A DNA stretch of 27,343 nt from a virus (Duplodnaviria; Heunggongvirae; Uroviricota; Caudoviricetes). Below the pieces are notes generated by a model. That model was not told the DNA's origin, did no database searches, and saw nothing but the letters and a program-made list of their open reading frames with translations. A program made the position numbers and the translations under genes. This document shows, one piece after another, positions 3,855 through 23,971 of the stretch (positions within the stretch are counted from its first letter, which is position 1; every line of letters begins with the position of its first letter). The stretch covers positions 1-27,343 of the IMG/VR virus record IMGVR_UViG_2734482779_000006; one strand, 5' to 3'.

Positions 3855-3876
3855 CACTGTAAGCCAAGGACGGCAT

Positions 3877-4371: not shown

Positions 4372-4435
4372 ACCAACCTCCTTAGTTTTGTGCAGGATAC
4401 CAGATGATAATGTGTAGTTGGAGTAGCGCGGTTGT

Positions 4436-5519: not shown

Positions 5520-5520
5520 G

Positions 5521-5548
5521 AAAAACCCACCGTCAGGTGGGTTTTTTG
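5521..5548. terminator. bidirectional intrinsic terminator
   Basis: Stem ACCCACC/GGTGGGT with loop GTCA, flanked by an A-run upstream and a T-run downstream; lies between convergent genes ending at 5519 and 5533. Confidence 0.6.
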
Positions 5549-5784
5549 TTTTCTTGCATGTTCCTCAGCGTCTCAAGCAGCGCCTCTTTGAATTTGTCAG
5601 CTTCTTGCTGAGCAAATGACTCAACTGACTTTGGCGACCTATCTTCATCAATCGCGGCCTGCAAAATCATGACGATCTCGGAGTTAACAGAGCGACCATT
5701 TTTTGATGCTCTGACAGCAAGAGCCTCACGTAAAGATTCAGGGATTCTTACCGTAGTTGGAGAAATTGACACACCCTTTGCCAT
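5533..5784 (-). CDS. mnt: Mnt-like ribbon-helix-helix repressor
   Basis: 83 aa, the same length as P22 Mnt; conserved RHH core (RIPESLREALAVRASKNGRSVNSEIV against P22 FRMPMEVREKLKFRAEANGRSMNSELL); divergent from arc as in P22 immI. Confidence 0.8.
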   Translation of the reverse strand: MAKGVSISPTTVRIPESLREALAVRASKNGRSVNSEIVMILQAAIDEDRSPKSVESFAQQEADKFKEALLETLRNMQENKKPT

Positions 5785-5898
5785 ATCACACCTTTGGTAT
5801 TCAATTTGATATCAAAGTGTATGCAAAAAAATTTTGACTAGATATACTCACTTTGCTATCTTTTGTATTCGAAAAGAGTTGTTTGTGTGGAGGGTAAC
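5785..5898. promoter_or_regulatory. divergent mnt/arc promoter-operator region
   Basis: Perfect 12-bp palindrome TTTGATATCAAA at 5805-5816 next to the mnt start; -35 TTGACT at 5834-5839 with candidate -10 TATCTT at 5857-5862 facing arc. Confidence 0.45.
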
Positions 5899-6051
5899 AT
5901 GGAGAAAGAAATAAGTAAGATTTTGGTAAGGATGCCGCAGTCGTTAAAGGATGCTATCGGTAGCAGGGCAAAGGAAGAGTGCAGGTCGTTTAACTCAGAG
6001 GTTATCAAGCGCCTGATAGACAGCCTGAAGAGAGAGGGGGTGGCGATATGA
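5899..6051 (+). CDS. arc: Arc-like ribbon-helix-helix repressor
   Basis: 50 aa from ATG 5899 (GGAGGG RBS); RMPQSLKDAIGSRAKEECRSFNSEVIKRLIDSLKREG aligns with P22 Arc RWPREVLDLVRKVAEENGRSVNSEIYQRVMESFKKEG. Confidence 0.75.
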   Translation: MEKEISKILVRMPQSLKDAIGSRAKEECRSFNSEVIKRLIDSLKREGVAI

Positions 6052-6230
6052 ATAAAGAAGATGGCTTTAAGTGCTCCTTCTGCGGAAAGCCTCAGCATGA
6101 ATGTGCAATGTTGATTCGCGCTAAAGCAGAGATATTTATCTGTAGTGGTTGTGTATCTCTTTGCGTTGAAGCGATGGGGAAAGAGTTAAATTCTAGAAAA
6201 ACAATGTTAGATGTGAACATAAAACAGTGA
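6048..6230 (+). CDS. small zinc-ribbon protein resembling the ClpX N-terminal zinc-binding domain
   Basis: 60 aa; CSFCGKPQHE...IFICSGCVSLC matches the ClpX motif CSFCGKSQHE...YICDECVDLC (C4 zinc site); start ATG overlaps the arc stop (ATGA at 6048-6051). Confidence 0.6.
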   Translation: MNKEDGFKCSFCGKPQHECAMLIRAKAEIFICSGCVSLCVEAMGKELNSRKTMLDVNIKQ

Positions 6231-6292
6231 AGCCCCAACTGCGGTAACAGTCAGGGCTTCGGTTGTCGGTAAATCCGTGGAGAAAAACCAAC

Positions 6293-7195
6293 ATGAATAG
6301 TATAGCAATTTTAGAAGCAGTAAACACCTCTTACGTACCTTTCAATGGTCAGCAGATTATCACCGCCATGGCTGCCGGAGTTGCATATGTTGCGATGAAG
6401 CCAATCGTTGAAAACCTCGGAATGAGCTGGGGTACTCAGCAACAAAAACTTATGAAACAACTAGATAAGTTCAACTGTATTCATATGAATATGGTTGCTG
6501 CTGATGGAAAGCTTCGTAAGTTACTCTGCCTTCCTTTGAAGAAGTTAAATGGGTGGCTGTTCAGCATTAACCCTGAGAAAGTTCGTGCTGACATCCGCGA
6601 TAAACTTATTCAGTACCAGGAAGAATGCTTTACTGTGCTGCATGACTACTGGACGAAGGGAAAGGCAGAAAATGCACGTAAGAAAACATCTGTTGATGAC
6701 AGGACTCCGCTTCGTGATGCTGTAAATATGCTAGTCAGCAAAAAGCATCTAATGTACCCAGAAGCTTATGCAATGATTCATCAGCGTTTCAATGTGGAAA
6801 GTATTGAAGAGCTTGATGCATCTCAGATACCGCAAGCCGTAGAGTACATCCACAGGGTAGTGCTTGAAGGTGAGTTCATTGGCAAACAAGAGAAGAAGAC
6901 CAACGAGCTTTCTGCAAAAGAAGCAAACAGTCTTGTATGGTTATGGGATTATGCCAACCGCTCACAGGCATTATTCCGCGAACTGTATCCGGCATTAAAA
7001 CAAATTCAATCGAACTATTCCGGCAGATGCTACGACTACGGTCATGAATTCTCGTATGTTCTCGGAATGGCGAGAGACGTTTTAATAAACCACACACGAG
7101 ATGTTGATATTAATGAGCCAGACGGACCAACGAATCTTTCCGCATGGATGAGACTTAAGAATAAAGAATTGCCTCCTTCAGTACATAACTACTGA
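6293..7195 (+). CDS. ant: Ant antirepressor
   Basis: N-terminus [22 protein letters not shown] matches the P22 Ant N-terminus as recalled; the true start is ATG 6293 rather than the TTG at 6263; followed by an intrinsic terminator. Confidence 0.85.
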
Positions 7196-7214
7196 CAGAT
7201 AACCAACGCAACGA

Positions 7215-7238
7215 CCCAGCTTCGGCTGGGTTTTTTTA
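7215..7238 (+). terminator. rho-independent terminator after ant
   Basis: Hairpin CCCAGC-TTCG-GCTGGG followed by TTTTTTT. Confidence 0.7.
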
Positions 7239-7305
7239 TGCCCAAAATTCACCGTAGCTACGCTGCGGCGATTCCTTGTATCTGGAGCAAATTAAATGAC
7301 AGACA

Positions 7306-7794
7306 TTATCTAAAACAAGCAAACTCGCCATGATATTTTTCCCTGAATGCAATAGACATCAATTCGGCCAGCTCAATATCATCGGTATACCCAAGGCAAA
7401 TAGACTTACCTTTTAGTTTGAACATAACTTTATATGTGTTTTTCCCTTTAAGAAGATGAACTCCTTTTATACCTGTATTGGATGATGAAACGCTGTTGGT
7501 TTTATTCTGACCTCTGGTTACTTCTCTTAGGTTTGAAATTCTATTGTCATTTTTAACCCCGTTAATATGGTCAATTAACCCTTTAGGCCAGCATCCTTTC
7601 ATATAAAACCAAGCAAGTCGGTGGCAAAGATACGATTTTCCATTAATCCGTATTGATAAGTAGTCGGCCTGTGAGTTCGTCTTAAATCCAGCAACCTTTC
7701 CGATACTGGAGCTACCAGAAGCTATCTTCCAAGTGAAGACGCCTGTTTCTGGGTTGTAGTTGAGTGAAGAGGTTAATTCTTTATGAGTAATCAT
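7306..7794 (-). CDS. HNH homing-type endonuclease (HNH_3/AP2-like)
   Basis: Motifs CHRLAW...GLIDHINGVKNDNRISNLR typical of phage HNH endonucleases; ATG at 7794 has better RBS spacing (AAGGA plus 6 nt) than the ATG at 7800. Confidence 0.75.
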   Translation of the reverse strand: MITHKELTSSLNYNPETGVFTWKIASGSSSIGKVAGFKTNSQADYLSIRINGKSYLCHRLAWFYMKGCWPKGLIDHINGVKNDNRISNLREVTRGQNKTNSVSSSNTGIKGVHLLKGKNTYKVMFKLKGKSICLGYTDDIELAELMSIAFREKYHGEFACFR

Positions 7795-7820
7795 ATTCAT
7801 TCCTTAAATAGAGATTCACT

Positions 7821-9953
7821 ATGTCAAATATTGTGCCAAATGTTATAATTTCAATGCCAAGTCAACTATTTACGTTAGCCAGAAAATTCCAAGCCGCAAG
7901 CAATGGCAAGATATTCATTGGTAAGATAGATTCCGATCCTACGCTCCCACAGAATCAAGTGCAGGTTTATGTGGAGAATGAAGACGGTTCTCACGTTCCT
8001 GTTTCGCAACCAATCATCATTAACGCTGCTGGTTATCCTGTATATAACGGACAGATTGCCAAATTCGTTACCGTGCAAGGCCATTCTATGGCTGTTTATG
8101 ATGCGTATGGTGCACAGCAGTTTTACTACCCAAACATTCTGAAATATAACCCTGACCAATTAGAGTTGAGATTAATTGGACCGGATGGTTTTAAATACAT
8201 AGGGAGATGCAAAAATATTAATGATTTACGTCTAATAGAACCAACAATTGAAAGTCAATTAATAAATGTTATTGAGCATAGTGATGGTGTTGGTATCGGT
8301 GGCGGTTTTTTTGAGTATGATTCAACAGATAATACTTCAGAAGATGATGATGGAATGATAATTGTCACGCCTGGTGGAAAGCGTTGGAAAAGGATATGCA
8401 ATAAAGTGTATGCTGATTATTACGGAATTGTTCCAGATGGAGTAACGGATTATCATGATAAATTGAACAAAGCACTGCAAGCGGCAAAAATGGCAACGGT
8501 GAAAGAGCTTATTCTTTCTGAAGGTACTTACGGGATTAACTCTGCACTGAAAGTACCATCTCACGTTAGATTGCGTGGGGTGGGGAAATTTAAGACCGTT
8601 ATTCTAGCACTACCAACAATGCCGATAATTGAAAACTGTATTCAGAACGAGCTTTATGAATACAGGGTATTCAGGACAAACTACGATACTTCTATCCACA
8701 TAGAAGACTTATGTGTAGATGCTAACAATCGAGCAAGAAATCCGTCAGAAACATGGATGGATGCCACACAGGGGACTACTATTTTATTTTCTACTGTTAG
8801 CCACAGTTCCATCAAAAACGTTTACTGTAAGCGTGGTTTGCAGCATGGTATAGATATTTGTGCCGGGTATTATTTCGATGATGGAAATATTGATAATAAT
8901 GCAGTTGGCGGTAGCTATGACATTGTTGTTGAAGACACTTTTGTTCAAAACAGTCAACTTGACGATCTCATTACAACGCATAATAGCAGTGATATTGTAA
9001 TTAACCGCTGCCGAGTATGGAACGATGACCCATCTCAAGTATGGAATGATAACCAACACGGAATTGAAATTGATGAAGGAAGTTATAACGTCACAGTAAT
9101 GGATTGTTATGCTGAAAATGTTATCACTGGGTTTCAACAAAAAGGTCACTCCACTACAATGCCTGCTAGAAGTGTCCGATTCATTCGTTGTTATGCAAAA
9201 GATTGTGTTTACAGTTTCCAAATTGAACATCGAAACTCACAAACAATACCTTCTGGGCAACATCAACAAGCGCGTAATTCAGTGATTGAGGATTGTACGT
9301 CTGATAACGCAAATAATATTAAATATCAGGCTCTTCACGCTCGCGCGCTTCTTGTTTTAGGTTTTTTTGGTGTTTATGTGCGAAATCTGAGAGTTATAGG
9401 AGGGTCAGGAAATATATATTTAACTGGTGGTGCTAAATATATAAATATCGATGGTGTTCAGTGGACTGGAGGGTATGATGGAGCATCAAGCACCACACAG
9501 GAAGGGTTGATACATATAGAAACTAACGCAGCAGTTGATGATTATTGCATTCGTGATTTTATATGTGAAGATACGGTTACCGTGCCACTTATAAGAGACC
9601 TTACTGACACCACTGTTCAGCGAGAAATATCAAATGTTCGTGGGTATGGCGGGGATAATTCAATCCCAATGATCGCTATTGCGCCGCAGTCTGGTGATAA
9701 TATATCTAATATATCTAATGCGGGTACGTGGGCCTGCGCCATTAGAGATATGGCTAGAGAGGTAGGACAAGGTGATTACGCTCAAAGTGTATCCTTCCAG
9801 AATGGTTTCATTTTTATTTCAGGTAATGGCACCCCAAATGGGGTTATATCTGGCAAACCTGGTGCCGTGTATGTTAACACGGCGAGTGGATTTCAGTATC
9901 TTTGCACGGCTATAGGCAAAAATAACTGGGTTCCAATTACAACCGGAGTTTGA
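7821..9953 (+). CDS. tailspike protein with P22-type N-terminal head-binding domain
   Basis: First ~110 aa ([49 protein letters not shown]...[15 protein letters not shown]...LKYNPDQ) closely parallel the P22 gp9 N-terminus; the remainder is a long divergent receptor-binding region; 710 aa. Confidence 0.9.
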
Positions 9954-10012
9954 TGGTTAAAAATATCACACGCAAAGCTTTGCATCGGTTTGCAAGGTTT
10001 TGCGCCAATTCC

Positions 10013-11170
10013 CTATGATACATTCCCATCAAGCCAGTCCGCCCACCATTGCATCATTTCTCTGCGCTTATCCAGATACTGAGCATGGTTGTAAATCCCG
10101 CGTACAGATCCGCCGTTGGCATGTGCCAGTTGCACTTCAATAGCATCAGCAGGCCATTCGTGCTCGTTCATAATTGTGCTGAATTCATGCCTGAATCCGT
10201 GACCGCTTTCCAGACCTTCATAGCCGATTTGTTTGATCACAAGCAATACCGCGTTCTCGCAGATTGGCTTCTTCTTATCGTTGCGACCGGCAAAAACAAA
10301 CTCTGATACTGGTTTAGTGATTGAGCTTAGCGTAGTGAGAAGTTCAATCACCTGGTCTGACATAGGAACCACATGAATTTTGCGTCCTTTCATCACACTG
10401 GCGTCGATGGTGATAATCCTGTTTTCAAAATCGACGTTCTTCCATTGCATGGAACGAAGCTCTTTAGTTCTTAGGGCTGTATAGCGTAAAACCTTGGTGG
10501 CAATGAGCGATACGATACTTCCTGAAAATGTTGCCAGTGCTTTGTTGAATGCCGGGATCTGGTCTGCAGGAAGAAACGGGAAGTTCTTCTTGCGGTATCC
10601 CTTCATGGCGTCAGCAAGGTCAGGTGCCGGGTTATATTTAGCCCTTCCGGTGACAATAGCGTAACGGAAAACCTCGCCGCATCTTCTGCGTGCTTTGTTG
10701 GCTCGCTCCATTGCCCCGCGATCTTCAAATCTGCGGATTACTTCCAACAGTTGCATCGGCTCAATATCCTGAATTTCAAGGCCGCCGATGATGGGTAAAA
10801 TGTCGTCATCAAACATTTTTGCAAGTTCATTTGCATAGCCTACTGACCAGACTTGCTTCTTGTGCTCGTACCATTCCTTGTAAATGGCGCTAAAGGAGTT
10901 GTTGTTAGACGAAGCCTTTTTCGCCTTTACCGGATCGATGCCAACCGAGATGTCTTTCCTCGCGGTCCATGCTTTATCCCTTGCCTCCTGCAAAGTCATA
11001 AGCGGATATTTTCCGACGGTCAGGATTTTCTCCTTACCGTCAATCTTGTAGCGAAGCTGCCATACCTTTTTCCCGGATACAGGGACATAAAGGTACAGTC
11101 CATTACCATCGAGAAGGCGGTATGGTTTTTCTTTCGGCTTTGCTGCTTCAATCTGCTTAACGGTGAGCAT
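10013..11170 (-). CDS. intS: IntS-type tyrosine integrase (P4-like, argW-specific)
   Basis: 385 aa from MLTVKQIEAAKPKEKPYRLLDGNGLYLYV (integrase N-terminal arm-binding type); catalytic motifs GHGFRHEFST and LAHANGGSVRGIYNHAQY; the 16-bp argW-derived att core lies about 160 bp upstream. Confidence 0.9.
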   Translation of the reverse strand: MLTVKQIEAAKPKEKPYRLLDGNGLYLYVPVSGKKVWQLRYKIDGKEKILTVGKYPLMTLQEARDKAWTARKDISVGIDPVKAKKASSNNNSFSAIYKEWYEHKKQVWSVGYANELAKMFDDDILPIIGGLEIQDIEPMQLLEVIRRFEDRGAMERANKARRRCGEVFRYAIVTGRAKYNPAPDLADAMKGYRKKNFPFLPADQIPAFNKALATFSGSIVSLIATKVLRYTALRTKELRSMQWKNVDFENRIITIDASVMKGRKIHVVPMSDQVIELLTTLSSITKPVSEFVFAGRNDKKKPICENAVLLVIKQIGYEGLESGHGFRHEFSTIMNEHEWPADAIEVQLAHANGGSVRGIYNHAQYLDKRREMMQWWADWLDGNVS

Positions 11171-11330
11171 GGGTAAAAATCCGGTGGGTAAAATTATTTT
11201 ATCCACTTTTTACCCGTCATGTAGTGCGGCTGTCAACGATCTGACGCGAACCATGACGAACTGTAAATCTACGGAAGGCTTGATATTCAGGGGATTTTGC
11301 GGACTGGTACGGATGGGAGCGAACTGATAA

Positions 11331-11568: not shown

Positions 11569-11817
11569 ATGCGCACACAGGTTGTATTGCAAAAATGGGG
11601 TAACAGCATTGCCCTTCGACTAACGGGAAACCTTAAAACCGTTCCGGGTTTTTCAGTGGGTGATATCGTCAACGTTGAAATTAGTGAAAAAGGGCTTTTT
11701 GTAGAAAAGCCTGCACGCCGTCGCCTGAGTGAAGCCGAACTACTCGCCGGGATAACGCCAGTTACAGCGCACGCTGACGAAATTGCCACCCCATTCAATG
11801 AGGAGGTTGATTACTGA
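11569..11817 (+). CDS. MazE/ChpS-family antitoxin (AbrB/SpoVT fold)
   Basis: 82 aa; KWGNSIALRL motif and acidic C-terminus typical of MazE/ChpBI; stop overlaps the toxin start. Confidence 0.8.
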   Translation: MRTQVVLQKWGNSIALRLTGNLKTVPGFSVGDIVNVEISEKGLFVEKPARRRLSEAELLAGITPVTAHADEIATPFNEEVDY

Positions 11818-12161
11818 TGTTTGTACCTAAGCGTGGTGATATTTGCTGGCTGGATTTTGAGCCGCAGAAAGGAAAAGAGATCGGAAAGTATCGCCCGGCA
11901 CTCATACTGTCCCATGAGCAATATAACCGACTCACCGGGTTTGTCATATGCTGCCCCATAAGTACGAGCATACGAAATGCTCCCACAGAAGTTCCGGTAA
12001 CAAATCTGGACGCCCCCAGCGTGGTAGCAACCACACTCATTCAAACCCTTGACTGGCGTCAGCGGAAAGCGCGCTTAATCACAGAGGCAGAAGATGGGGT
12101 ATTTAATGATGTGCTTGAAAGAGTCATTACTCTGATTGGTGGAGAGCATCTGCTTAAGTAA
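11817..12161 (+). CDS. MazF/PemK-family endoribonuclease toxin
   Basis: 114 aa; PKRGDICWLDFEPQKGKEIGKYRPALIL matches the MazF/ChpBK N-terminal signature; start overlaps the antitoxin stop by 1 nt. Confidence 0.85.
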   Translation: MFVPKRGDICWLDFEPQKGKEIGKYRPALILSHEQYNRLTGFVICCPISTSIRNAPTEVPVTNLDAPSVVATTLIQTLDWRQRKARLITEAEDGVFNDVLERVITLIGGEHLLK

Positions 12162-12204: not shown

Positions 12205-13476
12205 CTATTCTTTCCAGTCAATCCCATCCAGTAAGCACCCTGCCTCATATTGCCCCACCACCCAGTCAAGGTTACAGGACTCATAGAACGAGAGGCGATT
12301 ATACTGAGGCTCGTTTTTTACCAGGCCACGAACGGAACCACGCTGCCAGTACAGACACAGATTGGCAAGAGGTGTGATCAATACAGCATTGTCCGGGAAA
12401 AATGGAACGGTTACAGCCGGGAGATTCCCCAGAACGGGATTTTTAATGATTTCCTCGTTAAGCAAAATTTCCTGATTCATCTGCGATGGATCAAGACGGT
12501 TTATCAAAGGCCATTGTTTACGGACCAGCGTATTGTGACTGCATACGGCCACAATGCCTTCCTGCCACTGTTCATCAATCATGGATTGCCAGGCATCCAG
12601 AACGAGCGCATCTATCGTATGGTGTGTACCGCGTGTATTACTTTTCGGTGATGAAACAGAAAGGCCGCTGATAACCCTTCCCGCCGCTTCATTTCGAAAC
12701 TTCTGCAACCAGCCCACGCCACAATCGTCACGCCCCGGATATGTTTTAGGGTCAGATTTGGCGGCATAATGTGTGCCGTTAAAACCAATCTGAATTAAAT
12801 CCAGCCATTTCCGGCGTTCAAAAGCGGCCCGCGCACTTCCTTCAAGGCCGTTTGCGGATGCGTGAGCATCGGCATTGTCGTAGTTCAACGCAAAATCAAA
12901 ATTAACCTGCTCGCAGCGGTAGCCCCTTGAAACCAGTGAATGCGCCTGTAGTGGCGAACGGCGCTCGTGAGGTGGCGATGTACGTGCCAACGACCCCGAA
13001 GCGTCTACCAGCACAACCCGACCTGATATATCCGTAACAGGCACGGGAGTTATTTCAGCAAGGAAATTTGCCTGCCATCCACTGGCAAGCGTTGCACTCT
13101 GGCGAGGAACGGGTTCAACTTCTGACGAATAGCGCGCAGTGTCACCGGAAAAGTGCAAATCCTTCGGATGCTTTCCGGTTATCGACTCGATAGCGCAATT
13201 GAAAACCATCTGAGACTGTTGATTTCGTTGTGATACAACAGAATCAGCAGTGCAATTATAACGCTCAATGCCGTCGTTATTACCCCCACCGCTTGCAGTA
13301 TGCAGGGTGTGAAGCTCAAGCTCACGCTCCAGTTTTTGATATTCATTGTCCAGCGCGCGACGCGTCTCATCGCTTATGCTTGCTGTGTTTGCTTTCAGGC
13401 GATTCCGGGACATTAATCCCCTGAGTCGGCTCACTATATCAGCGCCGTGCAAATGTGGAGTATTCAGACCGCCCAT
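12205..13476 (-). CDS. candidate P2-family major capsid protein (gpN-like)
   Basis: 423 aa from the ATG overlapping the upstream stop (TAATG at 13474-13478); segments NFDF...GFNG...GWLQKFRNEA...GNLPAVTVPFFPDNAVLITPLANL...NYxSxNLDWVVGQYEAGCL resemble my recollection of P2-family capsid proteins; sits in a late-type operon downstream of an Ogr/Delta gene; needs confirmation. Confidence 0.45.
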   Translation of the reverse strand: MGGLNTPHLHGADIVSRLRGLMSRNRLKANTASISDETRRALDNEYQKLERELELHTLHTASGGGNNDGIERYNCTADSVVSQRNQQSQMVFNCAIESITGKHPKDLHFSGDTARYSSEVEPVPRQSATLASGWQANFLAEITPVPVTDISGRVVLVDASGSLARTSPPHERRSPLQAHSLVSRGYRCEQVNFDFALNYDNADAHASANGLEGSARAAFERRKWLDLIQIGFNGTHYAAKSDPKTYPGRDDCGVGWLQKFRNEAAGRVISGLSVSSPKSNTRGTHHTIDALVLDAWQSMIDEQWQEGIVAVCSHNTLVRKQWPLINRLDPSQMNQEILLNEEIIKNPVLGNLPAVTVPFFPDNAVLITPLANLCLYWQRGSVRGLVKNEPQYNRLSFYESCNLDWVVGQYEAGCLLDGIDWKE

Positions 13477-14186
13477 TACTGCCACCCCCGGCAGAGTTCT
13501 CTGCCCTCCGCAAGGTCGCGCATTTTTTCTGGATTCTGTCGCGCCGCGCTCCATTGTACAGGTGAAGGGGCGCTCCTGATTGCGCAGCTTACTGAATCCG
13601 GGAGTTTCTCCGGGCAATAACGCAGCGGGCTGGAGGTGTCGCTTTCGGTATCGTTAATCCGGCCGCGAATCATCCCGACACTTTCAGCAGTATCTGCCGC
13701 TTTCAGTGTTTCGCATATTTTCTTTTCTGCGTTATACAGCGGCTGGCCAAGCAGCTCACATAAACCACGAATCAATAACAGAACAGGGGTCAGCTCGTTA
13801 ATCAGTTCGGGAAGTGCTTTTGCAAATATCTCTGCCCGCAACTTATTATCAATACTTTCGTAAGCACAACCAGCCTCTGCCGCGTTATAACGACACTCCA
13901 GTAGCCTGATGCGCGCCTCATCATGCAGCACCCGCAGACGCTCAAGATTTTCTCGCGCCACACCCGCCTGAATGGATAATTTCGCGGAGGCTTCCGTTTT
14001 TACTCCCAGCGCAGACAGGATTGAGTTCTGCCAGTCACGATCGAGAGACTCCAGTTCCCCTTTCGTCTGTTCGATAGTCGCTTCCAGATTGGTGACTAAT
14101 GATTCCTGTTCACTGAGCTTTGCCCTGGCTGTATCAAACTGTGCTTTACATACCTGATGTTCGGCGCTTGCCTGAGTTATATCCAT
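13476..14186 (-). CDS. coiled-coil protein, candidate capsid scaffolding or size-determination protein (gpO/Sid-like)
   Basis: 236 aa, strongly helical and heptad-like N-terminal half; translationally coupled to the capsid-like gene; size close to P4 Sid (244 aa as recalled). Confidence 0.4.
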   Translation of the reverse strand: MDITQASAEHQVCKAQFDTARAKLSEQESLVTNLEATIEQTKGELESLDRDWQNSILSALGVKTEASAKLSIQAGVARENLERLRVLHDEARIRLLECRYNAAEAGCAYESIDNKLRAEIFAKALPELINELTPVLLLIRGLCELLGQPLYNAEKKICETLKAADTAESVGMIRGRINDTESDTSSPLRYCPEKLPDSVSCAIRSAPSPVQWSAARQNPEKMRDLAEGRELCRGWQ

Positions 14187-15940: not shown

Positions 15941-16942
15941 TTACTCTGCTGGCTCTTTTTCTTTGGCGATATTCGCATTAGCCACTGGATTAAACTTCAG
16001 GACATCAGACAAATAATCAGGCGCAAAATGTGCGTATATCATTGTTTGTTGAATATTTGCATGCCCTAAAACTCGCTGAAGAGCAATTATACTCCCTCCA
16101 TTCATCATAAAATGCGTAGCGAATGTATGCCGTAATACATGAACAGCTTGCCCCTTTGGCAGATCTGGCTTTACAGCGCGAAGCATTTTACGGTATTCAC
16201 CATAATCAACATCAAACAACCCCCCCGAATCTTTTGTTTTGATTTCGCGAACAACTTCATTTGAAATGGGAACAATGCGGACTTTACCGTTTTTGGTTTT
16301 GTTAAATATCACACGATTATCAATGATGTGTTCTGCTCGCAAGCTTTTTGCCTCTCCCCATCTGGCCCCCGTACTAAGGCACAGCAATGTAATTCGACGC
16401 GCATCACCATTAGAAAAATTCAACAAACGAATAATTTCTTCATGTGTCAGATATGTCATTTCTGAAATCTTTCGTTTCATAGCGGGAACAGAACGAACAG
16501 GATTTTTACTATGAAATTCTCCACTCTGGATCAACATGGTGAACATTCCAGCCAATTCCGCTTCATCTCGCTGAATTGTAGAAATTTTGACTCCTGCTCC
16601 CAATCTCTCGCTGCGATACATAGCCATAAACCGCGCATTTATTTGTTCTGCTCGCGGATCTCCCATTTCTTTAATTACTTTCTTTAGTCTTAATTTAACA
16701 TTGTCAGCGTATGGTTTGTTGCGTCCACCCAGTTTCCACCACAGCTCCAAGAGTTCAGAAATGCGCCTGTGATCAGCTGGCTTTTCAAGCCACTCTTTAT
16801 CATTCATATGGCTAAGAACATATCGCTCAAAAGCTAAGGCATCTGCTTTCTTTTTAAAAAGCCGCTGAATTCTGCGTCCATACCGCCCGTTTGGCCTGAT
16901 ATCTACCTTATAGGAGCCATCATCACGCTTTTTAACGGACAT
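15941..16942 (-). CDS. P2-type tyrosine integrase/recombinase
   Basis: 333 aa from ATG 16942 (AGGAGGG RBS 9 nt upstream, 3 nt after the primase stop); N-terminus MSVKKRDDGSYKVDIRPNGRYGRR is typical of P2-family integrases; catalytic HVLRHTFATHF and LGHANIQQTMIYAHF. Confidence 0.85.
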   Translation of the reverse strand: MSVKKRDDGSYKVDIRPNGRYGRRIQRLFKKKADALAFERYVLSHMNDKEWLEKPADHRRISELLELWWKLGGRNKPYADNVKLRLKKVIKEMGDPRAEQINARFMAMYRSERLGAGVKISTIQRDEAELAGMFTMLIQSGEFHSKNPVRSVPAMKRKISEMTYLTHEEIIRLLNFSNGDARRITLLCLSTGARWGEAKSLRAEHIIDNRVIFNKTKNGKVRIVPISNEVVREIKTKDSGGLFDVDYGEYRKMLRAVKPDLPKGQAVHVLRHTFATHFMMNGGSIIALQRVLGHANIQQTMIYAHFAPDYLSDVLKFNPVANANIAKEKEPAE

Positions 16943-16944
16943 AT

Positions 16945-19614
16945 TTAGCGTCCCTCCTTGTAGCTGAATATCCAGCATTTCAATACTTCATTTTCTTTAG
17001 CCTGGGCTACCCCCCTTCCGGTGTTCGCCTGTTTGACTACCTCGCTACGGACTGACTTGTACCCAATCAGTGGCCGAGAACGACCAGTCTTGAGAAGCTT
17101 TATCATTTCGGGATTGGTTTGGATCTTCACATGGTGAATAGCGGCAACCTGCTCCAGTTGCGGGATACTAACGGCAAGCCCATTCTGGGATCCCTTGCCA
17201 AAGTGGTTTACGCCGTATGCTGTTATGCCGTCCAGATAGTCGAACGCCTCCCAGAACGCTATTACTTCCGGCAAGTCATCCGTTACCGCTTTAGCTTGTT
17301 CCGCTGCCATTCGTTCCAGTTCCTGGCATGTGGCATTAAGCCATTCATCCGGGATATCAATAACGCATTTCAGCGCCCTGACCAGCGCAATAAGTTGCGC
17401 GTGATTTTTGGCAATACGCTGATGACGAATATTTTCGCAACCATAAAGGCGGGTTGTTTCAGGATCAGATAGTGCCATAAACGTCTCCATAATCGCCCGT
17501 TCCTGACTTACTGCCCGATGGATAAAACCTGATACCTGCTCAACGGGGTAAAGCTCCAGCCGTTTTGCTGCCAATCGGCTATCTGGTGAGTGGCGTTTTT
17601 TATCGGTGTATACGCGTACCAGACGCTCAATAATTGCCGATGAGGCGTTTACCGTGGCATTCTGCGCAATCACGATAGCCCCCTTAAAAACGGGGTCATA
17701 TGTGGCGTTATCATTGGTTTTAACGCCACGCACCCCAATACCGCCACCGTTATAGAGGCTTTTCAGGTTATCGAAATCAAACGCCCCCCTTTTTTGTGCG
17801 TTATCGCCCCTGTCCGCTTCAATCAGAACAACAGGTAATCCAGCAACCTGTCCAAAAGTTCGCTTCCAGCCTGATTCTGAGCCTTTGGTTGGATCAACAC
17901 CTTCATAGTTGTCACGGCCACACAAACGCCAGCAAAAATCAATTAACGTTGTTTTACCCGTACCTGGCTCTCCGGTAATCTCAAGAAAGGGGTAAGATGT
18001 GTTTTTCTGCCTGATTTGTTCGCTGAACAACGAACCCAACCAGAAAGCCAGGGTAATAATTCCCTTTTCACCAAACGCCAGCCAGAGATCTTCCACCCAG
18101 GATGTTGTAAATTCATCCGGTTTTTTATAGTTAATCTGCAATATTGGTTTTTTATTCAATGGTTTTGCGTTTACGCCATCAATTTCAAAATAATCCTCTT
18201 CATTGATTTCGTAGGTTTTACCATTACAAACCGCGATATCATTAAACAACCACGCACCAATCTCTTTGTTGTATCCGATAAAATCCTGACCGATAACACT
18301 TTTTATTGCGGGAAGGTCATTTTTTATTAATGCGTCAAGGTGCGCAGTTGTTCCGGTATAAATACCGCCTTTTGCTACGTGCAACAGACGTTTTTTAAAT
18401 TCAGATGCGGATGTTAATTGCCCTGATGTAAAGGTGTTTTTCACCGTAGCACCATCCGGGAATGTAATGCGGAAGTAATACCATGCTTCATCCGTATCAT
18501 TGTTTCGAATGTAATAAAGCGGCACTGGGTTACAGTTTGCGATTTCTTTTACAGCGCCGGATTCCTTGAGTGCAATTTTGCGCGCTTCATCTTCGTCAAC
18601 ATTTCGCTCATTAATGACACGCTCAACAGCCTTCATATGGCGCTCAATATCCAGCTTGAACCAGAACACACGGTTATCAAAGGGAAAATGAAATTCCTTT
18701 CGCTCACGAAAGGAAAACATTATTAGTGCCTTATCTCTCGGAGATTTCGCCAGCAATAAATCACCGTAATAACGGTATCTTTTCACATCATGGCCACGTA
18801 GCTTTCCGGCGATGTGTAAATCATTCCAGTCGCGTTTATTGTTGTTTTCACCCGGTAACGCCGCTGCCGTTCTCCAGCCGCCTTCGGCGCTGCGTTCTGC
18901 ATGTTTTTTTGCGTAACGCTCACCCGCACGCCCGTTATCCAGCGCCCACACAATAACCGGACGGGGATTATCTCCGCACAGCTTCGCCAGTTCTTCCAGC
19001 GCCTTATCAGGGTAGTTCACGGCAGACATGACAGAAACGGCCGCAATGCCATTCTGGTTAAGGCTGATGGCATCAAAGACACCCTCACAAATCCAGATTT
19101 CTTTGGCCTTGCTTAAATCTGCTCCCGGATAAGCCCACCACAGCCCCTTGTAGCTGCCGGAAAAATTCGCCTTGCGCGCGAAGCGTTCCGGTCGGTCTAT
19201 GATGCGCTCCCACCACACACCGTCAGCCAGCGTAAAACGCACGGTAGCAGCTTGTTCGCCGCTTTCCTTGTCCTGGTATCGCTCCTGAGTAAATGCGCCC
19301 TTCAGTGGCTCCACAGCAATATTGCGCGCCTCCTGAAGATAAGCTGCCGCCGCTGCGTATGGATCGTCTTTCGTGCTGATATAGCGATCTGACCATGATG
19401 AAAACACATCCGGGTAAAGTTCTTTGGTCAGCAGGTCTGTACCGCATTTATTTTCACGCCCGCAGTGTACGATGTACGGCCTTTCAAGGCTGGTAAACAG
19501 CTCCTTCTTTCCACATTGCGGACAAACACCATACCGAAGGTAGTTATTTTCTTCTTTGAAGTTGTAATCACGGATAAGACGGTTAATAATCTCTTTTCTG
19601 GTATCAGGCTTCAT
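16945..19614 (-). CDS. P4 alpha-like primase-helicase
   Basis: 889 aa; N-terminal zinc-binding CPQCGKK...HCGRENKC; Walker A GEPGTGKTT in the C-terminal helicase region; location and size typical of satellite-phage alpha proteins. Confidence 0.9.
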   Translation of the reverse strand: MKPDTRKEIINRLIRDYNFKEENNYLRYGVCPQCGKKELFTSLERPYIVHCGRENKCGTDLLTKELYPDVFSSWSDRYISTKDDPYAAAAAYLQEARNIAVEPLKGAFTQERYQDKESGEQAATVRFTLADGVWWERIIDRPERFARKANFSGSYKGLWWAYPGADLSKAKEIWICEGVFDAISLNQNGIAAVSVMSAVNYPDKALEELAKLCGDNPRPVIVWALDNGRAGERYAKKHAERSAEGGWRTAAALPGENNNKRDWNDLHIAGKLRGHDVKRYRYYGDLLLAKSPRDKALIMFSFRERKEFHFPFDNRVFWFKLDIERHMKAVERVINERNVDEDEARKIALKESGAVKEIANCNPVPLYYIRNNDTDEAWYYFRITFPDGATVKNTFTSGQLTSASEFKKRLLHVAKGGIYTGTTAHLDALIKNDLPAIKSVIGQDFIGYNKEIGAWLFNDIAVCNGKTYEINEEDYFEIDGVNAKPLNKKPILQINYKKPDEFTTSWVEDLWLAFGEKGIITLAFWLGSLFSEQIRQKNTSYPFLEITGEPGTGKTTLIDFCWRLCGRDNYEGVDPTKGSESGWKRTFGQVAGLPVVLIEADRGDNAQKRGAFDFDNLKSLYNGGGIGVRGVKTNDNATYDPVFKGAIVIAQNATVNASSAIIERLVRVYTDKKRHSPDSRLAAKRLELYPVEQVSGFIHRAVSQERAIMETFMALSDPETTRLYGCENIRHQRIAKNHAQLIALVRALKCVIDIPDEWLNATCQELERMAAEQAKAVTDDLPEVIAFWEAFDYLDGITAYGVNHFGKGSQNGLAVSIPQLEQVAAIHHVKIQTNPEMIKLLKTGRSRPLIGYKSVRSEVVKQANTGRGVAQAKENEVLKCWIFSYKEGR

Positions 19615-19660
19615 ATATAAATCCTCTCCCCCCCCCTGTAAAAATACAGGGGGTTATTCT
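19615..19660 (-). other. stem-loop plus G9 tract in the primase 5' leader
   Basis: On the minus strand CCCCCTGTA-TTTTT-ACAGGGGG hairpin followed by GGGGGGGGGAGAGGA and the ATG; no U-tract, so not a canonical terminator. Confidence 0.4.
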
Positions 19661-19966
19661 TTATAATTGTTTATTGCTTTCTGAAATCCCCACAAACCGT
19701 GCAGCATGTAGAGAGAAAGGGCGCTCAGAGTAATAAATATTGCCTTTTATTCTTTCCAGTTCGCGCAACAAAATGCGCAAAATCGCCTTCATTTGTGAAC
19801 CTGATACAATGTCAGCGCCAGGAGTATCTATTGCAATGTCAGAGAAATAAGATAATAAATCAAGTGTTAAAATAACATCACAAAGAGAGTTATTTGCATC
19901 ATCGGAGATAAATCCAACATATTTAGATAAAATATCATGAATAAACATATTCTGATTTTCAGACAT
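19661..19966 (-). CDS. hypothetical protein (satellite early region)
   Basis: 101-aa ORF directly upstream of the primase leader; no recognisable motif. Confidence 0.4.
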   Translation of the reverse strand: MSENQNMFIHDILSKYVGFISDDANNSLCDVILTLDLLSYFSDIAIDTPGADIVSGSQMKAILRILLRELERIKGNIYYSERPFSLHAARFVGISESNKQL

Positions 19967-20033
19967 AAAAGCTCCCCGACCCGTTAAGGCCGAAATATAA
20001 AATTAATTCAGTTATCAGTTGGCAATTCGGGAA

Positions 20034-20252
20034 TCAGGCAGAAAGCTGCGTAACCTTCAACGCCCTGAAATGTGTCATTCCCAGCTCTTCCAGCCCTTCG
20101 GCTGCGCGGCGTATGGCTTCGCCCGGCCCCGTTCCGTATACCGTTGCGTGTGCATGTTTGGTTAACCCGCGCTTATTAACGGCATAACCCAACACAAAGA
20201 AACGTTTTTCACCACTGCCATTATTTTTACGGGATATTGAACGGCTTTTCAT
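20034..20252 (-). CDS. hypothetical small protein
   Basis: 72-aa ORF at the end of a chain of overlapping small genes. Confidence 0.4.
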   Translation of the reverse strand: MKSRSISRKNNGSGEKRFFVLGYAVNKRGLTKHAHATVYGTGPGEAIRRAAEGLEELGMTHFRALKVTQLSA

Positions 20253-20437
20253 TTCTTCACCTTTACCACTGATGCTGTGAGTTCTTCTTCTGGCAATTGA
20301 TATTTCGGCGCAATTTCTTCCGTATACCTGATAGCGTCCCTTGCCGCTTTTCCTTTTGATTTATATTTACGTATCGTGTGGAAGTTTTCTTCCTCTCCTG
20401 TTACCACATTACGCAATTTAATATGGATCTCGTACAT
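20249..20437 (-). CDS. hypothetical small protein
   Basis: 62 aa from internal ATG (MYEIHIKL...); stop overlaps the next start (ATGA). Confidence 0.4.
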   Translation of the reverse strand: MYEIHIKLRNVVTGEEENFHTIRKYKSKGKAARDAIRYTEEIAPKYQLPEEELTASVVKVKK

Positions 20438-20439
20438 CG

Positions 20440-20622
20440 TTACCCCTCCATGATTTTTACTGCGCATTTGTGGGTTAATCGCCCCTGTTTGTCATTGCGG
20501 GAATATGCCATACGACAGGCATCACGCCATGCATCGTCATAAGTCGGGTATTCCCGGGCATGAATCATCTGGCGAACGTCGCCGTTCTGGCAGTTAATCA
20601 GGGTGATAAGGAGCTTAAACAT
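20440..20622 (-). CDS. hypothetical small protein
   Basis: 60 aa from ATG 20622 with GGGAGG RBS 7 nt upstream (MFKLLITLINCQNGDV...). Confidence 0.4.
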   Translation of the reverse strand: MFKLLITLINCQNGDVRQMIHAREYPTYDDAWRDACRMAYSRNDKQGRLTHKCAVKIMEG

Positions 20623-20788
20623 GGCACGCCTCCCGGACACGAATACGGGCAACAAAGACCAGACGGGATGCCGGAAGCAGGGCGCGCGCTTCGCGCTCAC
20701 TGGCAGCGGTAACGGTATGAAGGCGGATATTTTTACCGTGGCACTGCATAAAGCGCCAGATAAAATCAGGGCGTGTTGATATAGCCAT
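20615..20788 (-). CDS. hypothetical small protein
   Basis: 57 aa from ATG 20788 (GGGAG RBS); the longer 175-aa version upstream is low-complexity and unlikely to be coding. Confidence 0.3.
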   Translation of the reverse strand: MAISTRPDFIWRFMQCHGKNIRLHTVTAASEREARALLPASRLVFVARIRVREACHV

Positions 20789-21204
20789 ATGAAAGGCTCC
20801 CAATTCAAGTTTAAGAAGCCTCACTACAACGCTGTCAAACGTGGTGGCGAGACGTAACAGGGTTGACAGACTGGCAAATTGGGAAACCAGCGAGCATAAA
20901 GCTCCCCCATTACGCCCCGCCATAATACGGGAAAGGGTGGTATTACGGGCACAAAAAAACCGCATTACGGAATACAAGCGGCTACCCGCCAATTTATTCA
21001 GGCTGTCAAACCCGGCACCTGTTTTATGAGGTGCGGGCAAACGATACGCCATGACAAAAAAGCGAGTCAAGCAATATTGCAAATTATTTTGGCGCGATTG
21101 CGCTGAGTGATTGATTTTTAAGAGTAAAAAAGCCATAATCATTTCTGCCTATTATTTCTTATTGTTGGTTTCAGGTGCACTAAATGCACATCCTTGACTG
21201 GTTG

Positions 21205-21697: not shown

Positions 21698-21919
21698 TTA
21701 AGCCTGAAAACGTTGTTGTTTTCTTTCTTCTATCCAGTCGATAATTTCCTCTTCAACCCATGCAACCGCACGAGGGCCTATTTTTATTGGTTTGGGGAAT
21801 ATATCAGATTTTATATCTTCGTAAATTCGAGCTCTCGATCTCCCTGTGATTTCAATGACTCTGGGGAGTCTTATTAATTTTTGAATCCGCCTTTCGCTGG
21901 TCTGTGAGTATGCTGACAT
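21698..21919 (-). CDS. AlpA/Vis-family transcriptional regulator or excisionase
   Basis: IRLPRVIEITGRSRARIYEDIKSDIFPKPIKIGPRAVAWVEEEIIDWIEER follows the AlpA pattern RLPxVxxxTGxxRxTIY...FPxP...GxRxVxWxExEIxxW. Confidence 0.8.
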   Translation of the reverse strand: MSAYSQTSERRIQKLIRLPRVIEITGRSRARIYEDIKSDIFPKPIKIGPRAVAWVEEEIIDWIEERKQQRFQA

Positions 21920-22530: not shown

Positions 22531-23793
22531 TCAGTCTGTTTCGTTAGCCCATTTAAAATCATAGGGGGCAATATATGCCGTCTTGCAGGTGTCGAGATAA
22601 TCAGCCCACCATTGCAACATTCGGCGGCGTTCCTGCATATGTTCAGCTCTGTGAATGTATGCAGCCCGGACACTGCCTCTTTCCCTGTGACTCATCTGAA
22701 GCTCAACGGCTTCTCTTGTCCACCTGCCTGACTCTGTCAGCGCCGAACAGGCCATAGCTCTGAATCCGTGGCCACAAATATCTTTTTTTGTGTCGTATCC
22801 CATGTGGCGTAATGCCTTGTTAATGGTGTTTTCGCTCATTGGTTTTATCTGGTAATGGTCGCCGGGGAAAATAAACAATTCATCACCGGATATATTTCTT
22901 ATATCGTCAAGAAGCTGCATGGCCTGAGTGGGCAAAGGGATGGCGTGAGGGGTTCCCATTTTCGTTCCACGATATGAATATTTTACGCCTTCTATTTTTT
23001 CGCGTTCTGCTGGTATTACCCACATTGATTTATCAAAGTCAATTTCATTCCAACGAGCAAAACGCAATTCACTTGAGCGAATAAAAATTAATAAATTTAA
23101 TTTTAGTGCAAATTGCGTTAATAACCGTCCATTCATCTTGTGGTGGTAATCATTTATTTTGCCAAGTAATTCAGGTAATCGCTCAAGGGGAAGAGCGGGG
23201 CGATGTTTGGTTTTATTAGTTTCGATTGCACCGTTCAGTTCCTGCGCTGGATTGTATTTAATCATTCCATTCTGTACAGCGTAGCGCATAATGGCGTTCA
23301 TTCGCTGCTTGTTACGTGATGCTGTCTCAAGCACTCCTTTATCTTCCATTTTGCGTAAAGGAATCAGTAGATCCATGGTTGTGATCTCGTTAATTGGCCT
23401 TTTACCAAGAATGGGGAAGATGTGGTTTTCCAGGTCTTTTAAGACTTTTTGCGCGTGTAATTCGCTCCAGCCCTTTTTCCGGCTGTGCCATTCTCTGGCA
23501 ACGTCTTCAAAAAGCACTATTTGAGGTTTTGGTGTGTGCAGTGGGTCAATGCCTTTAGCCAGGCTCGCCAGATATTCATCACGAGCGTTCCTTGCCTGTG
23601 CAAGTGTTACGGCAGGATAAATGCCTAAAGCTCGGGTCGTTTCTTTACCGTTGATAACCTTGCGAAAGCGCCAGTATTTTGAGCCGTTGGGGTGAACATA
23701 GAGATACAGGCCTTTCCCGTCACGAAGTTTTTTAATTTTGTTGTTGTCCTTATCTGGTTTGGCGTTACGTACAGCTACATCAGTCAGTTTCAT
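22531..23793 (-). CDS. IntS-family tyrosine integrase of the P4-like satellite
   Basis: 420 aa from MKLTDVAVRNAKP (GGAGGA RBS); N-terminal arm-binding type; catalytic GHGFRAMACS and SVRAAYIHRAEH; C-terminal MLQWWADYLD parallels intS MMQWWADWLD; immediately downstream of argW. Confidence 0.9.
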   Translation of the reverse strand: MKLTDVAVRNAKPDKDNNKIKKLRDGKGLYLYVHPNGSKYWRFRKVINGKETTRALGIYPAVTLAQARNARDEYLASLAKGIDPLHTPKPQIVLFEDVAREWHSRKKGWSELHAQKVLKDLENHIFPILGKRPINEITTMDLLIPLRKMEDKGVLETASRNKQRMNAIMRYAVQNGMIKYNPAQELNGAIETNKTKHRPALPLERLPELLGKINDYHHKMNGRLLTQFALKLNLLIFIRSSELRFARWNEIDFDKSMWVIPAEREKIEGVKYSYRGTKMGTPHAIPLPTQAMQLLDDIRNISGDELFIFPGDHYQIKPMSENTINKALRHMGYDTKKDICGHGFRAMACSALTESGRWTREAVELQMSHRERGSVRAAYIHRAEHMQERRRMLQWWADYLDTCKTAYIAPYDFKWANETD

Positions 23794-23971
23794 TATGTTG
23801 ATCCTCCAGACGGGTACAAATAAAAATCGAACCAAGCGTACCCGTTTTTATACCCATTTTAATATGGGCTTCAGGCAAATTTAACGAGAGATAACGAGAC
23901 AATGGAAGAGATTTAACTCATTGAAAAACAATGGGTAATGGTTTTTTCTGAGAGATTGCGAGAAGTTGCGA

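Follow-up and report, generated by a model that had tools for sequence, protein, structure and literature searches.

The 27,343-nucleotide stretch of viral DNA analysed here (the window) carries, directly upstream of a primase gene, a cassette of five ORFs in the same direction that tile positions 19661–20788; these ORFs and all other window features located below lie on the minus strand. ORF1 (20615–20788, 57 aa, Shine-Dalgarno sequence GGGAG) comes first among the operon's translated genes and is Icd/Kil-like. It is followed by ORF2 (20440–20622, 60 aa, GGGAGG), which encodes a small beta-beta-alpha-beta-beta protein; ORF3 (20249–20437, 62 aa from the ATG at 20437, GGAGGGG), a probable paralogue of ORF2; ORF4 (20034–20252, 72 aa), a conserved orphan with a variable basic N-terminal tail; and ORF5 (19661–19966, 101 aa, GGGGAG), which encodes a helical protein occurring as deeply divergent, recombining alleles. 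The preliminary description had credited these genes with decent ribosome-binding sites, and such sites are indeed present upstream of the ORFs. Its picture of ATGA start/stop overlaps applies to the ORF3/ORF4 junction, the sole true overlap of this kind in the cassette, and not to the others: ORF1 and ORF2 overlap by 8 nt (ATGTTTAA), ORF2 and ORF3 are separated by 2 nt (TAAcgATG), ORF4 and ORF5 by 67 nt, and ORF5 and the primase gene by 46 nt.

Non-conserved ORF boundaries had been named beforehand as grounds for doubting these genes; instead, the same ORFs recur in frame across 13 related loci (E. coli L001 and L002, Escherichia sp. L004, IMG/VR L006–L014 and Yersinia L110). Pairwise dN/dS values range from ~0 to 0.76, and RefSeq annotates a CDS for each of the five. 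The five minus-strand ORFs are genuine genes. One boundary had to be moved: ORF3, first read as 72 aa from a start at 20467, is a 62-aa protein, because the upstream start lacks a Shine-Dalgarno sequence and the conserved protein begins MYEI in all relatives, including the Yersinia element without ORF2. The RefSeq start is also that of the 62-aa form.

Upstream of ORF1 lies a compact set of regulatory features. A sigma-70-like sequence at 21041–21070 (TTGACT, 18 nt spacer, TATCGT) is a candidate operon promoter and an analogue of PLE; it matches the consensus at 9 of 12 positions, a level at which the region holds no more such sites than expected by chance. Its sequence is unchanged in nine distinct related loci, and it stops 6 nt ahead of the start of an IsrK/SeqA-like leader RNA (20953–21034; Rfam isrK start 21034), which ends in a 3′ hairpin and U-run. 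The match of this leader to Rfam RF01394 (isrK) scores 52.3 bits, barely over the gathering score of 50; the same family is found 5′ of C4 elsewhere, in P4 (60.8 bits) and in the Yersinia element (52.1 bits). The leader is followed by a C4/CI-like antisense (immunity) RNA at 20840–20927, a full-length match to RF01695 (70.5 bits, E = 4.5e-12, gathering score 45), with 74.9 bits at the equivalent P4 site.

The pairing elements expected of such an RNA can be assigned. The loop of C4 hairpin 2 (b′, 20875–20886) pairs with target boxes, and a single-stranded linker (a′, CUGUCAA) occupies 20863–20869. Downstream, the target region (20797–20838) contains box a2 (UUGACAG, 20832–20838) and box b2 (UGAAUUGGGAG, 20797–20807), the latter including the ORF1 Shine-Dalgarno sequence; loop and b2 form 11 contiguous base pairs that take in this sequence. 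Upstream, the IsrK-like RNA itself contains decoy boxes a1 (UUGACAG, 21003–21009) and b1 (UAAAUUGG, 20989–20996). Among 10 loci there are seven loop sequence types, every one of them with targets to match, and the loop co-varies with both the upstream (a1/b1) and the downstream (a2/b2) boxes. Overall, 98.4% of cells are paired, with double compensatory changes in 8 of the 16 pairs, while neither the paired fraction nor the covariation score was attained in any of 500 shuffled controls; slid controls were 27–56% paired. Cognate duplexes have energies of −11.4 to −12.9 kcal/mol against a non-cognate mean of −5.3, and every cognate duplex is stronger than any non-cognate one. A pattern search of viral contigs for further C4 types returned no contigs beyond the set already analysed. 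Together, these data suggest that the C4 antisense RNA controls the operon, through a pairing-based block of translation or through termination.

At its other end, the operon closes with a primase-helicase gene (16945–19614, 889 aa), the analogue of P4 alpha. The protein matches phrog_1139 (2.4e-301) and Toprim_2 (1.8e-12) and has the domain order of P4 alpha (zinc finger, Toprim, Walker A), with weak local similarity. A hairpin at 19632–19653, downstream of the ORF5 stop and ahead of the ribosome-binding site of the primase gene, keeps its structure despite sequence change between alleles (window CCCCCTGTATTTTTACAGGGGG, other alleles CCCCACTGCAAAAGGTGCAGTGGGG), and the ORF4/ORF5 and ORF5/primase intervals (67 and 46 nt, with hairpins) could be separately regulated. 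Searching genome contigs with the primase found two loci, and the cassette is absent from distant primase relatives. The satellite is integrated at tRNA-Arg(CCT) and has, like P4, an integrase and AlpA upstream and Ogr/Delta elsewhere in the element.

The preliminary description had found none of the small genes recognisable, which does not hold for ORF1: residues 9–51 match the Icd-like NCBIfam model NF033153 (E = 3.8e-15, 55.7 bits, cutoff 25). The ORF of the P4 Kil region matches the same model (7.8e-21) and aligns with ORF1 at 30% identity; Icd-like ORFs of other satellites were included in this alignment. ORF1 is 91–100% conserved in relatives, with dN/dS of 0.16–0.49. P1 Icd is a division inhibitor that binds FtsZ (PMC11897509). 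On the strength of this family membership, ORF1, an Icd/Kil homologue, is likely a cell-division inhibitor, FtsZ would be its target, and a role in host takeover is plausible. The RefSeq entry for this gene is a 175-aa Icd-like form (20615–21142) that spans both RNA genes, and we flag this overlying CDS as an annotation problem.

ORF2 to ORF5 matched no family in Pfam, NCBIfam, PHROG or PADLOC, and ORF2 to ORF4 are members of small uncharacterised families. The predicted ORF2 fold is a compact beta-beta-alpha-beta-beta domain (pLDDT 96), the structural neighbours of which are generic small alpha/beta folds only, with PurS, ClpS and RRM domains scoring about equally. ORF2 and ORF3 are probably paralogous, as judged from an alignment of residues 1–39 (hhalign E = 2.6e-4, probability 42%; BLASTP E = 0.003). 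We also considered a single beta-beta-alpha-beta fold shared by ORF1 to ORF4 as paralogues, and rejected it: only the ORF2/ORF3 pair found weak support, and comparisons of ORF4 with Icd, ORF4 with ORF3 and ORF3 with Icd gave nothing significant. ORF2 is missing from the Yersinia element, where a 7-codon stub preserves the overlap, and ORF3 is 52–100% conserved with Yersinia (52%) included (dN/dS 0.13–0.51). Where ORF1 and ORF2 meet, the RNA shows no better folding than shuffled sequence (z = 0.34), which gives no sign of a structure sequestering the ORF2 ribosome-binding site; the overlap alone therefore argues for translational coupling at this junction.

ORF4 is a lineage-restricted orphan, with only nine matches at E ≤ 1e-3 in an exhaustive phmmer search of 1.84 billion representatives. 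Its conservation is 92–100% among the E. coli relatives and falls to 67% in Yersinia, with dN/dS from ~0 to 0.21, and its AVNKRG motif is weakly similar to the first ORF after Icd in the E. coli satellite L108 (E = 0.008). For ORF3, ORF4 and ORF5 alike, sequence-profile searches of the PDB gave chance-level matches only.

ORF5 differs from its surroundings in the depth of its variation. Alleles share 29–40% protein identity with that of the window and no nucleotide similarity, in flanks that are 90–98% identical; dS is 1.1–2.6 for ORF5 against 0.2–0.4 for the primase gene, and synonymous sites are saturated. Clustered at 90% identity, the family falls into 88 groups, from E. coli, Salmonella and Yersinia, and has no Pfam match. 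The AF2 model of ORF5 is a four-helix protein with a pLDDT of just 60, and the middle of the protein is hypervariable. Judged by these comparisons, ORF5 is an allelic module that is old and has been moved by recombination. Positive selection on ORF5 was considered and dismissed, with pN ≤ pS in every region and synonymous sites saturated. ORF5 allele and C4 type show no linkage.

Taken together, these observations lead us to propose, with a probability of roughly 70%, that the cassette forms the promoter-proximal portion of a P4-family satellite's early (replication) operon, which is under immunity control. Transcription would start at the promoter-like site (21070–21041), and the majority of transcripts would end at the terminator of the IsrK/SeqA-like leader, with the C4/CI-like RNA carried on read-through RNA. 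The loop of hairpin 2 and the linker would then pair with a2/b2 over the ORF1 Shine-Dalgarno sequence, leaving ORF1 untranslated. Since ORF1 and ORF2 overlap by 8 nt, ORF2 and ORF3 lie 2 nt apart and ORF3 and ORF4 share an ATGA, a block of ORF1 would also silence ORF2 to ORF4 through loss of coupling, whereas ORF5 and the primase gene would be silenced by transcriptional polarity, as in P4. Boxes a1/b1 in the IsrK-like RNA may compete for the C4 RNA, and once the block is lifted, ORF1 to ORF5 and the primase would be produced together.

What the proteins made from this operon do is a separate matter, in which roles for ORF2 to ORF5 are inferred from position and pattern of variation, and we suggest that their targets may lie in the helper phage or the host. 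Our best guess for ORF5 is a specificity module for a variable external partner. A fuller version of this idea, which we advance tentatively, is that ORF5 stands for a new family of polymorphic proteins that determine specificity in those P4-like satellites that encode a capsid protein: a small helical protein with conserved ends that dock a constant partner and a middle that recognises a variable target, such as the repressors of P2-like helpers or a competing satellite, its ancient alleles being shuffled by recombination under frequency-dependent selection. ORF2 to ORF4 would be further new families of early effectors.

Several other readings were weighed against this one. That ORF2 to ORF4 are non-functional, being chance frames or translated spacers that merely pass ribosomes on from ORF1 towards the primase gene, would fit their lack of known domains, their few homologues and the dispensability of ORF2 in Yersinia, where the stub keeps the overlap; we regard it as very improbable, given that each of the three has its own Shine-Dalgarno sequence, that ORF2 has a confidently predicted compact fold, and that amino-acid sequence is conserved (dN/dS ~0 to 0.76), even in Yersinia for ORF3 and ORF4. 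Scarcely better placed is the suggestion that the small proteins serve anti-defence or competition between elements (for example as anti-CRISPR-like or anti-restriction factors) rather than takeover of helper or host: the fold match of ORF2 is generic, PADLOC, a library of defence and not anti-defence models, gave 0 matches, and a genomic link to defence systems was not seen. A role in helper derepression, with ORF2 (possibly together with ORF3 or ORF5) as an anti-repressor in the manner of P4 epsilon, P1 Ant and Gifsy-1 AnrP, is possible, if still doubtful. In P4, an anti-repressor is encoded by the gene overlapping the end of the Icd-like ORF, and ORF2 has an equal 8-nt overlap. The P1 immI region is arranged like those of Gifsy-1 and P4, with an anti-repressor gene after the first ORF. 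In Gifsy-1, the gene coupled to orf45 encodes the anti-repressor AnrP (PMC4825925). The recombining allelic depth and hypervariable middle of ORF5 are likewise what one would expect of a protein facing diverse helper repressors. Against this, sequence comparison shows no likeness to epsilon, the Yersinia relative has lost ORF2, the ORF2 fold is generic, and epsilon, unlike ORF5, is 96–99% conserved in 78 of 80 P4-like IMG/VR loci (70% in the other two).

The position of ORF5 directly 5′ of the primase gene, like that of cnr in P4, and its similar length (101 against 106 aa) raise a further reading, which we consider unlikely: that ORF5 is the functional counterpart of P4 Cnr, which regulates the primase/initiator negatively and thereby determines copy number, with the ORF5 alleles providing incompatibility-type specificity between co-resident satellites. 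In 90% of P4-like elements this interval holds a member of a cnr family (PMC8628076), which speaks for such an analogue. So does the possibility of several Icd-bearing elements sharing one host, as E. coli genomes carry them at up to six places per genome. However, the ORF5 profile reached an hhalign probability of 0.2% with Cnr, and a Pfam scan of 78 members of the ORF5 family for DUF5375 (Cnr) gave 0 matches. Furthermore, ORF5 groups assort independently of primase type, and the primase has neither a hypervariable patch nor residues that follow the four ORF5 allele groups more closely than common ancestry explains.

The window thus holds an operon of known type whose set of genes is uncharacterised. 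Its regulatory head is a clean natural example of a known mechanism, in which coordinated changes in one RNA loop and two targets have given seven immunity specificities, and the C4 loop types predict cross-repression between satellites. What is known of P4 is commonly carried over to every P4-like element, yet this lineage has no epsilon, Orf151 or Cnr, and one of the four small proteins found instead, ORF5, differs deeply between elements that are nearly identical otherwise. If it is true that ORF5 or ORF2 sets helper specificity or compatibility between satellites, this would explain how satellites choose their helpers and would make helper range predictable from sequence.

Among the closest known systems is the left (alpha) operon of the phage-plasmid P4, which is under CI RNA immunity and runs PLE, seqA, CI, seqC, kil/eta, epsilon, orf151, cnr, alpha; in it, isrK (8615–8692), C4 (8420–8507), an Icd-like ORF (8168–8584), epsilon (7888–8175), orf151, cnr and alpha follow one another. 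The window likewise has an IsrK/SeqA-like RNA, a C4/CI RNA, an Icd-like ORF, small genes and a primase-helicase in the same order, which bears out the earlier placement of the cassette at the position of kil, epsilon and related early genes of P4. P4 CI RNA pairs with seqA and seqC (PMC4825925), and both it and the window C4 have a loop complementary to boxes on either side. Epsilon overlaps the Icd-like ORF by 8 nt, as ORF2 does ORF1, a likeness of position only. The proposed comparison with P4 epsilon and Kil succeeded for ORF1, which shares NF033153 with the Kil-region ORF, and not for ORF2 to ORF5, which have no homology to epsilon. By BLASTP and hhalign, these four have no detectable relationship with epsilon, Orf151 or Cnr: ORF2 against epsilon gave E = 0.8, and the ORF5 profile reached probabilities of 1.5% with epsilon and 0.07% with Orf151. 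A short motif that epsilon has in common with the ORF5 consensus (REL...SG.H...IFS) was set aside as chance (E = 0.035, probability 1.5%), and a deeper epsilon profile added nothing, because the 80 IMG/VR loci are nearly all 96–99% identical. In place of epsilon, Orf151 and Cnr homologues, the window has four unrelated small proteins, the highly polymorphic ORF5 contrasting with a nearly invariant epsilon, and its element, unlike P4, has a P2-type capsid homologue at the place of Psu/Sid.

The immI region of P1 and P7 (c4 RNA, icd, ant1/ant2) has a C4 RNA of the same Rfam family with a′ and b′ elements, and its targets, like those in the window, form one pair upstream (a1, b1) and a second (a2, b2) where the ribosome-binding site of an icd-type ORF lies. 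The first ORF is Icd-like in P1 as in the window, but it is followed in P1 by a large anti-repressor, Ant, and in the window by a chain of small unrelated ORFs leading to the primase gene; P1 is a plasmid prophage, whereas the window element is a satellite. The isrK/orf45/anrP region of Salmonella Gifsy-1 resembles the window in having an isrK-family leader with its own terminator and a processed C4-like RNA downstream. There, the small orf45 is the first ORF past IsrK; its ribosome-binding site is sequestered, and expression of anrP, the gene behind it, depends on orf45 translation through coupling (PMC4825925). Unlike Gifsy-1, the window element has no AnrP homologue. Finally, the PICI-type E. 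coli satellites L108 and L109 have shorter primases, annotated as ‘DNA primase family’ proteins and followed by SSB and PerC, and their small ORFs are unrelated to those of the window, with the exception of the AVNKRG motif that L108 shares with ORF4. These 3–6 small ORFs are mostly overlapping or tightly packed, and both satellites share with the window a common plan of int, alpA/HTH, C4, an Icd-like gene, small ORFs and a primase.

The five small overlapping genes that the preliminary description had placed at 19661-20788, ahead of the primase, are all present and all on the minus strand, with small corrections to the ORF3 start and to the junctions. ORF1 (20615-20788, 57 aa) overlaps ORF2 (20440-20622, 60 aa) by 8 nt (ATGTTTAA), a 2-nt spacer separates ORF2 from ORF3 (20249-20437, 62 aa), ORF3 and ORF4 (20034-20252, 72 aa) share an ATGA overlap, and gaps of 67 nt and 46 nt precede, respectively, ORF5 (19661-19966, 101 aa) and the Toprim primase (16945-19614, minus strand, 889 aa) that directly follows the cassette. 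A purine-rich Shine-Dalgarno sequence precedes each of the five starts by 5-8 nt. RefSeq calls the same five CDS in an E. coli locus that is 97.9% identical, and we kept its 62-aa form of ORF3, setting aside the earlier start at 20467 (72 aa). The reading frames of ORF1-ORF4 are kept across relatives (dN/dS about 0 to 0.76), and the five-gene cassette is real.

ORF1 matches the Icd-like family NF033153 (E = 3.8e-15) and aligns with the P4 Kil-region ORF (30% identity) as well as with the Icd-like ORFs of other satellites; on these similarities we assign it to the Icd family. Icd of P1 binds FtsZ via a core made up of three strands plus one short helix, blocking Z-ring formation (PMC11897509).

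Ahead of ORF1, the minus strand carries a C4 antisense RNA (20840-20927; Rfam, full length, 70.5 bits) and an isrK-family RNA (20953-21034; Rfam, 52.3 bits, barely over the gathering score). A promoter-like TTGACT-18-TATCGT stops 6 nt short of the isrK start, and the 3' end of the IsrK-like RNA is a hairpin followed by a T-run. The loop of C4 hairpin 2 is complementary over 11 contiguous bases to UGAAUUGGGAG (20807-20797), a target box that includes the Shine-Dalgarno sequence of ORF1; the IsrK-like RNA also has a related box within it. Ten related loci contain seven C4 loop sequences, each with its matching complement in both boxes, and a second box pair (UUGACAG or UUAGCAG) follows the C4 linker (CUGUCAA or CUGCUAA) across loci. 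Between C4 and the downstream boxes, 98.4% of cells were paired, 8 of 16 pairs had changed on both sides, and on four of five measures, paired fraction and covariation score among them, not one of 500 shuffles came up to the real data; slid controls were 33-56% paired. For the upstream boxes, 98.2% were paired with double changes in 8 of 14 pairs, and all 500 shuffles again fell short in covariation score and in paired fraction. Energies of the cognate loop-target duplexes were -11.4 to -12.9 kcal/mol, against a mean of -5.3 and a best value of -8.3 kcal/mol for non-cognate ones. This comparative covariation is the decisive evidence for an RNA immunity module.

The pattern shows selection for C4 pairing with the ORF1 initiation region, and it establishes ATG 20788 as the real start of ORF1. 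By analogy with P4 and P1, such pairing would block translation or cause termination. In the 97.9%-identical E. coli locus, the RefSeq version of ORF1 is long; this 175-aa 'Icd-like' CDS of RefSeq-style annotation (20615-21142, minus strand) spans both RNA genes. It merely crosses them, with protein-gene behaviour limited to the last 57 codons, an annotation problem shared with the legacy 'cI protein' ORF of P4. Immunity modules in two other E. coli satellites look duplicated or rearranged: L108 has two C4 copies (4723-4811 and 5204-5291) and a 1.6-kb CDS annotated 'Icd-like', and L109 has several Icd-like ORFs (4483-5962).

ORF2-ORF4 had no match in Pfam, NCBIfam, PHROGs or PADLOC. ORF2 and ORF3 look like tandem paralogues, judging from an hhalign match over residues 1-39 (E = 2.6e-4, probability 42%) and a BLASTP value of 0.003. 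In a Yersinia enterocolitica relative (L110), ORF2 is a 7-codon stub (MFKLLIN*, 4426-4449) that keeps the overlap with the ORF1 stop, with ~90 non-coding nt separating it from ORF3; ORF3 (52% identity), ORF4 (67%) and ORF5 are retained. ORF4 is an orphan: phmmer, run exhaustively against 1.84 billion representatives, gave nine matches at E <= 1e-3. A short AVNKRG motif of ORF4 recurs in another E. coli satellite, in the ORF that comes first after its Icd-like one (E = 0.008); profile comparisons showed no significant similarity of ORF4 to Icd or to ORF3.

Of the new findings, the most interesting is how ORF5 is divided into alleles. In elements with 89-95% identical primase, the ORF5 protein is just 29-40% identical to the window allele, while ORF1, ORF3 and ORF4 mostly retain 92-100% protein identity (the exception is ORF3 of the IMG/VR locus L006, 60%). 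No nucleotide similarity is detectable between ORF5 alleles, flanked by sequence that is 90-98% identical; divergence sets in after codon 6 and ends at a hairpin (19632-19653) that lies past the ORF5 stop and ahead of the primase ribosome-binding site. The structure of this hairpin is kept with an allele-dependent sequence, and, since it is without a clear U-run, it may be a processing/stability element or an attenuator. Synonymous divergence in ORF5 is saturated (dS 1.1-2.6 versus 0.2-0.4 in the primase) and pN never exceeded pS, so that the ORF5 variants are old alleles swapped by recombination, not the product of recent acceleration. The C-terminal tails sort independently of the middle region, and the allele groups show no linkage to C4 type or to a patch of the primase.

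A profile search gathered the ORF5 family into 88 clusters at 90% identity, from E. coli, Salmonella and Yersinia, with no Pfam domain; in both of the divergent members looked up, the gene lies directly upstream of the same primase type. The predicted structure is a low-confidence 4-helix model (pLDDT 60) whose fold matches were uninformative. As candidate roles, ORF5 may be an anti-repressor specific to the helper, may regulate replication as Cnr does, or may serve in anti-defence or competition; comparison with Cnr, epsilon and Orf151 of P4 found no relation. Since no corresponding variability is seen in the primase, we lean toward an ORF5 target that is external and variable.

The cassette lies in a ~12.5-kb island adjoining tRNA-Arg(CCT) and yfdC, a non-canonical P4-family satellite. 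In minus-strand order, beginning at the tRNA, it comprises a P4-type integrase (22531-23835), AlpA (21698-21919; PF05930, 5.5e-17), the cassette, the primase, a second, XerC/D-like tyrosine recombinase (15941-16978, minus strand, 345 aa) overlapping the primase gene end by 34 nt, an Ogr/Delta zinc-finger gene, a 236-aa protein and neighbouring P2-family major-capsid homologue (12205-14186, minus strand), and, at the distal end, a MazE/MazF-type toxin-antitoxin pair (11569-12161, plus strand) in the position of a known P4 defence/cargo hotspot. The recombinase keeps its place after the primase in E. coli and Yersinia relatives. The capsid homologue matches TIGR01551 at 9e-40, under the curated cutoff, and with the 236-aa protein takes the place of Psu and Sid in P4, possibly marking a P4-like lineage whose own capsid protein serves to make or remodel capsids. 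L110 also has a capsid homologue, flanked by alpA on one side and the Icd-like gene on the other. The stretch 1-11206, in tandem with the satellite, is the right-hand end of a P22-like prophage, with gp7-like and gp20-like ejection proteins, an HNH endonuclease, the P22-type anti-repressor Ant (6263-7195, plus strand) and its sar antisense RNA (6226-6292, minus strand; Rfam 88 bits), a tailspike with P22 head-binding domain (7821-9953, plus strand) and a P4-type integrase (10013-11206, minus strand).

Among 5426 complete E. coli genomes, the full cassette was present in 66. It is absent from distant primase relatives of high-GC hosts (42-48% identity; L005 and L015-L020); in most of these, an Ogr/Delta gene occupies its position or lies close by. 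Two other E. coli satellites have the order int, HTH, C4, Icd-like ORF, 3-6 small ORFs and primase; their small ORFs, most of them overlapping or closely packed, differ from those of the window. A recent survey reports that most Enterobacter satellites have Icd-like genes (PMC13612085), and the interval upstream of alpha in P4-like elements holds a cnr family (90%) and an unknown 75-aa family (61%) (PMC8628076). ORF2-ORF5 are uncharacterised, lineage-restricted families. P4 itself has the same order as the window, with isrK (8615-8692), C4 (8420-8507) and then an Icd-like ORF whose C-terminal 48 residues match NF033153 at 7.8e-21; epsilon, 96-99% conserved in 78 of 80 loci and 70% in the remaining two, overlaps this ORF by 8 nt, and the CI RNA pairs with seqA and seqC (PMC4825925). 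The P4-like early-gene position proposed for the cassette is borne out; its Icd-like first gene and regulatory RNAs place it firmly within the P4/P1 immI operon type.
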